Below, piece by piece: positions 32,261-32,648 of a stretch of DNA of 41,465 bases. The stretch is from a virus (taxonomy: Duplodnaviria; Heunggongvirae; Uroviricota; Caudoviricetes). The DNA lies in IMG/VR virus record IMGVR_UViG_2917881069_000006. One strand, written 5' to 3'. A program made the translations under genes and the position numbers. The notes below the pieces were generated by a model. The model saw nothing but the letters and a program-made list of their open reading frames with translations, ran no database searches and was not told where the DNA came from. The stretch's first letter is position 1. Each line of letters begins with the position of its first letter.

Positions 32261-32648
32261 ATGTGGTTTATAGTATTAATAGCTATCCTGATTATTGCCG
32301 CTTTCGTTTTTAAAAGCTCCAAATCCCAAAATCCACCTTCGCAACCAGTTCGTACTACTAAAAAAATAAAGGCACCCACACATAAAAAAACGCAAAACTA
32401 ACTATAGTTATAGTACCGATATCATTGAGTTAGATATAACTTATCAGGATGCGAAGGGCGAAATCACTAATCGCCATATATCTATCATAAAATACGACCC
32501 TTCAAAGAAAAAAATATATGCACGGTGCCATTTAAGAAAAAGTATGCGAAGTTTCTATATTGATAGAATATTAACCGCAATAGATATTGAAACTGGCGAA
32601 ATTCTTTCAGATCTCGACGGGTATATATCAGAAAGAATAAACTATTAA
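32261..32648 (+). pseudogene. membrane-anchored WYL-like domain protein, frame broken at an A7 run
   Basis: ATG 32261 (RBS AGGTG) encodes TM helix MWFIVLIAILIIAAFVF and basic linker, stops at 32399-32401; the overlapping frame continues ...ITNRHISIIKYDPSKKKIYARCHLRKSMRSFYIDRILTAIDIETGE... with the WYL-type motif; the two frames meet at A7 (32384-32390); span 388 nt (3n+1). Confidence 0.45.

Follow-up and report, generated by a model that had tools for sequence, protein, structure and literature searches.

To our knowledge, the current picture of WYL domains is almost wholly that of sensors within helix-turn-helix (HTH) transcription factors that switch on defence systems or DNA-damage responses. 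The WYL domains of CapW and DriD bind single-stranded DNA (ssDNA), conserved Ser and Arg residues contacting three bases (PMC11662680). Makarova et al. (2014) regarded the CARF and WYL domains as sensors of an analogous kind and listed a membrane-associated CARF as well as WYL-TerB and WYL-BRCT fusions, the fusions being cited from Anantharaman et al. 2012 (PMC4012209). Here we describe a small predicted WYL protein encoded at positions 32261-32648 of the viral record IMGVR_UViG_2917881069_000006, a stretch of 41,465 nucleotides (nt) that is called the window as a whole and represents an almost complete lambdoid prophage. The segment 32261-32648 is one accessory gene of this DLP12-like prophage, with an intact product of 128 amino acids (aa). 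The intact architecture comprises one N-terminal transmembrane (TM) helix, a disordered K/R-rich linker of roughly 35 residues, a C-terminal WYL beta-barrel and a short helix. In the window the gene is interrupted by a frameshift, and both the origin of this break and the possible role of the intact protein are considered below.

The window copy is read in two frames. The plus-strand open reading frame (ORF) 32261-32401 encodes MWFIVLIAILIIAAFVFKSSKSQNPPSQPVRTTKKIKAPTHKKTQN followed by a stop codon; a hydrophobic helix is succeeded by a linker with eight K/R and no acidic residues, in line with the N-terminal TM helix and basic linker that the original prediction, made from the window sequence, had described. 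The second frame, open between 32370 and a stop codon at 32646-32648, contains KIYARCHLRKSMRSFYIDRI and translates as ...TNYSYSTDIIELDITYQDAKGEITNRHISIIKYDPSKKKIYARCHLRKSMRSFYIDRILTAIDIETGEILSDLDGYISERINY up to that stop. The first start codon of this shifted frame is M at 32544, within the barrel, so the WYL part would not be producible alone from the window copy, which could yield only a 46-aa membrane peptide.

Intact copies of the gene were identified in several sources. A search of 5.8 billion proteins returned one cluster with the fused architecture, and its representative (P0001, 131 aa) is 98% identical to the fused translation of the original prediction. Two independent metagenome contigs (L002 and L003) encode P0001, and an exact-word scan of IMG/VR found two further copies (L084 and L085) with 97.3-97.7% identity to the window across 5.2-7.7 kb. 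The window and these four form the five DNA copies compared hereafter. All four others read CATAAAAAAACGCAAACTAAC where the window reads CATAAAAAAACGCAAAACTAAC, and the sole difference at the junction is one extra A in the window, CGCAAAAC, compared with CGCAAAC in the four intact copies (CAAAAC versus CAAAC). The native junction is ...THKKTQTNYSYS..., as opposed to the ...THKKRKTNYSYS... of the original prediction. In the 90% cluster all five protein sequences are full-length, one of them (P0024) being found on 31 contigs. The NCBI-sourced members have 128 aa and begin at MWF. The start used in the 131-aa gene call, GTG 32252, falls within the Shine-Dalgarno sequence AGGTG, which makes ATG 32261 (128 aa) the likelier start.

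NCBI lists the 128-aa cluster proteins of Escherichia albertii and E. coli as "hypothetical protein", and the window protein is already in the databases under this unnamed entry. Homologs with the fused architecture exist as intact 128/131-aa proteins in E. albertii, E. coli and metagenomes. Together with the profile and fold searches given below, they bear out the earlier proposal of one gene split by a frameshift and encoding a TM-anchored WYL protein without a DNA-binding domain. At the DNA level, a megablast search with 32150-32760 gave no match in 5426 complete E. coli genomes and matched only the flanks in 50,697 phage records. No hit was obtained with an exact 50-mer in 185,579 species-representative genomes, where a back-translated locus search with P0001 likewise yielded no confirmed relative, or with an exact 30-mer in the JGI metagenomes.

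The frame change had been placed at an A7 run, which was read as a possible slippage-prone on/off switch. The A7 run exists, and the five-copy alignment puts the break in the neighbouring A3/A4 tract at 32394-32397. A homopolymer at the junction could still act as a contingency tract toggling the TM-WYL protein, through phase variation in the DNA or through transcriptional or translational slippage at A7. Poly-A tracts are known slippage sites, this one lies 4 nt upstream of the break, and a transcript losing one A there would again give the full-length protein, differing at two residues. Slippage of this kind appears very improbable on several counts. The gene holds three A7 runs (32360-66, 32384-90 and 32508-14), all of invariant length across the five DNA copies, and their presence is explained by a GC content of 33% and a lysine-rich product; 13 A7/T7 runs occur in the whole 41-kb window, including these three. 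The only length variation, among the assemblies at hand, is A3 versus A4 in the tract beside A7, which is too short for efficient slippage and varies in the window alone. As for common ON and OFF alleles of a phase-variable gene, the five cluster proteins are all full-length. The two-frame arrangement of a programmed frameshift is not conserved either, every database protein of the cluster being a single intact ORF, and unrelated genes of the window also have unique homopolymer indels. The idea of a switch thus finds no backing in the A7 run, whose constant length in these assemblies is part of what the original prediction had itself named as speaking against it, and we give a programmed switch of any kind very little credence.

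The indels in other genes of the window are informative about the origin of the break. An extra T at 29970 (T5; T4 in L084 and L085), present in the window only, shifts the frame of the ybcK-like large serine recombinase gene (29939-31339, minus strand) 31 nt before its stop and cuts the product from 508 to 466 aa; without this T the product has 508 aa again, equal in length to that of the E. coli ybcK coding sequence in the DLP12-like prophage L076. The window also has C3 at 32141 instead of C4. In the tape-measure gene (10265-12826, minus strand), two compensating homopolymer indels relative to E. coli strain C4 (+T at 10977 and -1 at 11086) leave 109 bp out of frame, with stop codons at 11003-11005 and 11036-11038, and may reflect either a defective prophage or homopolymer errors of the assembly. 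Because the window has these other unique +/-1 homopolymer indels breaking conserved genes, either an assembly error or recent decay is likely at the WYL gene. A homopolymer-length error of the assembly is most likely, with somewhat more speaking for it than against it; the window-specific +/-1 pattern fits sporadic errors and is not conclusive. Two observations weigh against an error: all structural genes compared except the tape measure are intact (20 of 21), and the indel at 31839, one of the four that separate the window from L002/L003, is derived in L002/L003 and ancestral in the window. On these two grounds the notion that all differences of the window are errors was ruled out.

Alternatively, the frameshift could be a real, recent pseudogenising mutation in a decaying prophage, which we consider quite possible and short of probable. 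Remnants are already present in the prophage, among them a truncated Rha/Ant gene with a frameshift common to L002; the stop codons of the tape-measure gene and the truncated recombinase point the same way, and the deletion at 31839 in L002/L003 indicates that real indels occur in this lineage. However, all window-specific lesions are +/-1 homopolymer changes. The window differs from its closest copy, L002, by 4 indels and 3 substitutions in 1.8 kb, an indel to substitution ratio far above that usual for real divergence, whereas 4 indels and 204 substitutions separate it from L085. The apparent split gene and the "switch" of the window come down to a one-base homopolymer difference, probably an assembly error.

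The assignment of the C-terminal part to the WYL fold was examined by profile and structure searches. On the protein itself, the Pfam WYL profile (PF13280) matches residues 57-105 with an E-value of 0.0063 and 16.9 bits, below the gathering score of 21.8, while the PADLOC profiles RTasWYL-YodC and WYL match at 5.9e-9 and 2.2e-5. The protein also matches PHROG 6785 (1e-12) and PHROG 28047 (2.8e-6), both families of unknown function, and no NCBIfam family matches the intact protein. When the protein and three phage relatives were made into a profile, it retrieved 23 proteins, of which many had a precomputed PF13280 assignment. Ten relatives scanned with Pfam WYL scored 20.8-38.7 bits, nine of them (24.7-38.7 bits) above 21.8. 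In a 22-sequence alignment (P0001 numbering, as for the AF2 model and the substitutions described next), Y64, R74, C92, R99, F101, D104, R105 and I106 are invariant; C92, R95, R99, F101, D104, R105 and I106 are present in the window protein. The AlphaFold2 (AF2) model from this alignment has a pLDDT of 85.7 overall and above 92 over residues 58-130, barrel included; it replaced a single-sequence model that was too poor to use (pLDDT 57). In the model a TM helix (3-20) leads through a disordered linker into five strands (58-111), which are followed by a helix (121-130). The strands form an Sm/SH3-like beta-barrel closest to solved WYL domains, with PafBC, CapW and BrxR as the top Foldseek hits. 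The fold search was needed to reach these structures, as a sequence search of PDB chains returned chance-level matches only (designed WD-repeat-like Ika proteins and cofilin). Collectively, the PADLOC profiles, the Pfam scores of the relatives and the Foldseek hits back the WYL similarity proposed earlier, and we regard the fold assignment as solid.

The window protein is, by its sequence, a divergent member of the WYL family. The positions of the literal W-Y-L are K-K-I, where relatives have x-Y-L, and two near-invariant family residues differ (T100S and R102Y); ligand binding may differ for these reasons. No HTH was found in Pfam, NCBIfam or PADLOC searches, the N-terminus consisting of the TM helix and the disordered linker. 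A WCX domain is likewise absent, since about 20 residues, including one 10-residue helix, follow the barrel. The eight K/R residues of the linker lie C-terminal to the helix, and none lies on its N-terminal side. By the positive-inside rule, the helix would be an N-out/C-in anchor that holds the WYL barrel in the cytoplasm at the inner membrane.

The TM-WYL gene lies between the replication genes and the recombinase gene of the prophage. O (33734-34753), P (33036-33737) and a Ren-like gene (32728-33045) are on the minus strand, and the WYL gene on the plus strand is convergent with them. The low-GC cassette that carries it has no counterpart in IdasGreatGrand, in PhiR26_1 or in the E. coli DLP12-like prophages, which have emrE there. 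Blastn against L076, in which the order is rusA, ybcO, ninE, ybcN ... ybcK, emrE, ren, P, gave collinear segments at 90-95% for 28000-29234, 29794-31544 and 32777-34000, and window 31544-32776 takes the position of emrE. Collinearity with the E. coli Bongo prophage is lost exactly at the emrE position. The segment 31544-32142 (minus strand) holds the 5' part of a Rha/Ant antirepressor gene, truncated and frameshifted, with 31660-31899 as its largest ORF; directly upstream of this remnant are an isrK Hfq-binding RNA (32055-32127, 54.8 bits) and a C4 antisense RNA (31946-32031, 67.5 bits). The segment is 94% identical to phages IdasGreatGrand and PhiR26_1 and looks like the remnant of an immI-like antirepressor module. 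PhiR26_1 carries PD-lambda-1 between its Rha module and ren, on the same strand as the TM-WYL gene (PADLOC E-value 1.9e-198), and IdasGreatGrand has small unknown ORFs between ren and Rha/ybcK. Judged from these alignments, the interval from ren to Rha/ybcK is a variable cargo slot of lambdoid prophages, occupied by emrE, PD-lambda-1, small ORFs or TM-WYL. In the window it is flanked by ren on one side and by the isrK/C4/ant remnant and ybcK on the other.

Relatives of the protein are numerous, and their gene neighbourhoods suggest a link to lysogeny. A HMMER search of 1.84 billion representatives found 674 clusters (50% identity level) at E <= 1e-3. Among the best 147 of the 674, a strongly hydrophobic 19-mer stands N-terminal to WYL in 112, and C-terminal extensions are present in 58. 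The original prediction had called a TM-tethered WYL protein without a DNA-binding domain unusual; this holds for the characterised WYL proteins, among which it is absent, and not for prophages, where it is common (the same 112 of the best 147). A motif scan of IMG/VR identified 67 viral loci (L009-L075), most of them encoding proteins of 139-187 aa with one to three N-terminal TM helices and WYL; others add TerB-like or BRCT domains. In 53 of these 67 loci, a same-strand HTH/CI-type repressor ORF ends about 0-100 nt before the WYL gene (about 250 nt in two), with a gap below 25 nt or overlapping ORFs in many of the 53 pairs. A tyrosine integrase starts no more than 21 nt downstream of the WYL gene in 22 of the 67. 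Eight of the upstream neighbours were scanned with Pfam (four Phage_CI_repr plus Phage_CI_C, four HTH_3-type), and the rest were linked by jackhmmer. P0011 and P0006 come from prophage lysogeny regions as well, and P0018, a WYL-TerB relative, is directly downstream of a Phd/YefM-ParE toxin-antitoxin pair (metagenomic contig L083, 6266-7795). A conserved partner gene, or two-gene system, was considered and dropped because the neighbours of P0011 (257 aa) and P0021 (260 aa) have no relationship to each other. Targeted literature searches returned no paper describing TM-anchored WYL proteins, which is not proof of absence, and no description of the arrangement repressor, TM-WYL, integrase was found in the literature searched. 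HTH-less membrane-anchored WYL proteins right after prophage repressors appear to be an uncharacterised family pattern.

The close pairing with repressors could mean that TM-WYL proteins regulate lysogeny or induction. The WYL sensor would be split from its HTH partner, the adjacent CI/XRE repressor, and would signal ssDNA or DNA damage to it, the membrane tether serving for sequestration. The 53 of 67 loci in which the gene directly follows the repressor are consistent with this, the Phage_CI_repr/Phage_CI_C-type repressors are without an S24 self-cleavage domain, and the characterised WYL proteins are ssDNA-responsive transcription regulators with a fused HTH (PMC11662680; PMC4012209). The repressor of the window, however, lies about 3 kb from the WYL gene and is of the HTH+S24 type, able to respond to RecA alone, and the slot of the window gene is one that it shares with emrE and PD-lambda-1. 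Moreover, the place after a repressor is classically that of exclusion genes, as with lambda rexAB. We consider a role in lysogeny or induction control unlikely.

An exclusion role is the reading that we favour. Lysogen-expressed accessory genes often face pR transcription, and the WYL gene opposes pR-driven transcription. As the gene faces pR and its relatives mostly sit immediately after the prophage repressor, often with the integrase next, it may be expressed in the lysogen. The TM-WYL protein would then be a Rex-like, lysogen-expressed exclusion or abortive-infection factor, a role that we find plausible at somewhat less than even likelihood. In such a scheme, the lysogen would make the protein, and the WYL barrel on the cytoplasmic side would bind nucleic acid produced by an incoming phage; the analogy with CapW, DriD and PafBC points to ssDNA as a possible ligand. 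The output would come from the membrane anchor, either through oligomerisation that perturbs the membrane or through a block of entry at the membrane, and the outcome would be exclusion or abortive infection, a minimal counterpart of the repressor-linked RexA/RexB of lambda.

Several points count against this functional reading. It is drawn wholly from context and analogy. The cI-like gene of the window (35640-36395) is not adjacent to the WYL gene, so the lysogeny-operon argument holds for the relatives and not directly for the window copy: relatives directly follow the repressor in 53 of 67 loci, and the window copy is a separate cassette with a weak promoter-like site that is no better than chance in a shuffle comparison. 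Some relatives point to roles in DNA metabolism, namely the BRCT fusions and the stand-alone WYL genes beside primase in lytic Stenotrophomonas phages. The latter, in Autographiviridae, encode 69-aa WYL barrels of the same subfamily (<=48% identity) directly upstream of primase/helicase (L004, 2483-2692; L006, 2504-2713), which suggests a different, replication-linked use of the domain.

On this evidence the TM-WYL protein could instead be an accessory of DNA replication or repair, with ssDNA tethered or recruited by it at the membrane. Such an accessory would agree with the stand-alone and BRCT-fused relatives, with the location of the window gene next to O, P and ren, and with a weak hit to a PHROG family whose annotation is 'DNA ligase'. 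Yet the gene is convergent with the replication operon and outside it, its place can be taken by emrE or PD-lambda-1, and most TM-bearing relatives are in lysogeny modules. We hold a replication accessory to be quite improbable. Returning to exclusion, a broader proposal can be put forward tentatively, although as a whole it is rather doubtful. HTH-less TM-WYL genes of prophages may be a large and so far overlooked class, placed in lysogeny operons of the order repressor, TM-WYL, integrase and encoding one-protein sensor-effectors of ~130-190 aa that give a minimal Rex-like immunity. The cytoplasmic barrel would detect ssDNA or another nucleic-acid cue at the inner membrane and the TM helix would depolarise the membrane or block entry, the window gene being an enterobacterial representative relocated to the ren-ybcK slot.

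Table 1 Features of the TM-WYL locus, in coordinates of the window.
Feature	Coordinates	Strand	Basis or remark
Low-GC (about 33-35%) accessory cassette with the WYL gene	32143..32776	+	blastn breakpoints, GC profile
Promoter-like site TCAACA-17-TATCAT	32201..32229	+	weak; such sites in the region are no more numerous than in shuffles
Shine-Dalgarno AGGTG, 6 nt before ATG 32261	32250..32254	+	sequence
Truncated frame in the window, 46 aa plus stop	32261..32401	+	predicted TM helix residues 2-17 (32264-32311), then basic linker; AF2 helix 3-20 in P0001 numbering
A7 run, codons K42, K43 and first base of T44	32384..32390	+	same length in 5/5 DNA copies; not the frameshift site
A4 run with one-base insertion, actual frameshift site	32394..32397	+	A3 in four intact copies
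C-terminal 83 codons (T46-Y128 of the intact protein) plus stop, shifted frame	32397..32648	+	
Predicted WYL domain, five-stranded Sm/SH3-like beta-barrel, residues 55-108 of 128 aa	32424..32585	+	family-invariant Y, R, C, R-x-F-x-x-D-R-I
Short C-terminal helix after the barrel, too short for a WCX domain	32613..32642	+	AF2 model
GC-rich hairpin between the convergent WYL gene and ren	32663..32686	.	fold -19.1 kcal/mol, z -2.96

The hairpin between the WYL gene and ren has no T-run and was not called by the terminator scan, and a canonical intrinsic terminator 3' of the WYL gene was ruled out. Two other regions of the window were noted. At 29235-29793 the window has another low-GC insert that sets it apart from E. 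coli. Its plus-strand ORF 29321-29677 (118 aa) matches PHROG 7441 (unknown function) with an E-value of 1e-67 and has a weak N-terminal resemblance to Cor-type exclusion lipoproteins; two A7 runs occur in this insert, at 29312 and 29324. On the minus strand, 26214-26606 gives a full-length match (158 bits) to the cspA thermoregulator 5' untranslated region, in a 1.5-kb stretch without an ORF of at least 90 aa, and the prophage presumably carries a cold-shock protein gene.

If, in a large family, the HTH has indeed been replaced by a membrane anchor, with the gene placed right after the repressor and recurring in cargo slots beside known defence genes, the uses of WYL sensing would be extended and a very small candidate would be added to the prophage-encoded immunity and exclusion factors. 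Compared with the described WYL regulators, CapW (CBASS), BrxR (BREX), PafBC and DriD share the order winged HTH, WYL, WCX, whereas the window protein has neither an HTH nor a WCX dimerisation domain. Without an HTH it would not bind promoters alone, and the lack of both domains sets it outside this regulator class. It is also only 128 aa long, bears an N-terminal TM anchor and is without the literal W-Y-L or RWHVR residues. The WYL-TerB and WYL-BRCT proteins belong to the same WYL subfamily, and TM-WYL-TerB and TM-WYL-BRCT relatives with the motif RTFR[IVK]DRI were recovered, whereas the window protein ends right after the barrel, without TerB or BRCT.

Outside the WYL family, the sensor and TM effectors of signalling defence systems, such as the CARF-TM effector Cam1, carry a small cytoplasmic domain that senses a ligand, fused to TM helices with a possible action on the membrane. 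TM-WYL would follow the same sensor plus TM logic; it differs from Cam1 in its sensor fold, and in the window it has one TM helix and no signal-generating system seen adjoining. PD-lambda-1 and emrE are unrelated proteins that occupy the same lambdoid slot between ren and Rha/ybcK, PD-lambda-1 also in the same orientation, and this sharing suggests, and does not prove, a cargo or defence status of TM-WYL. A functional parallel may be lambda RexA/RexB. The TM-WYL family shares with it the location immediately downstream of the prophage repressor and the combination of a membrane component with a putative cytoplasmic sensor. The two have no sequence or fold kinship, the window copy stands outside the cI operon, and the putative exclusion role of TM-WYL would be carried by one small protein where lambda uses two.

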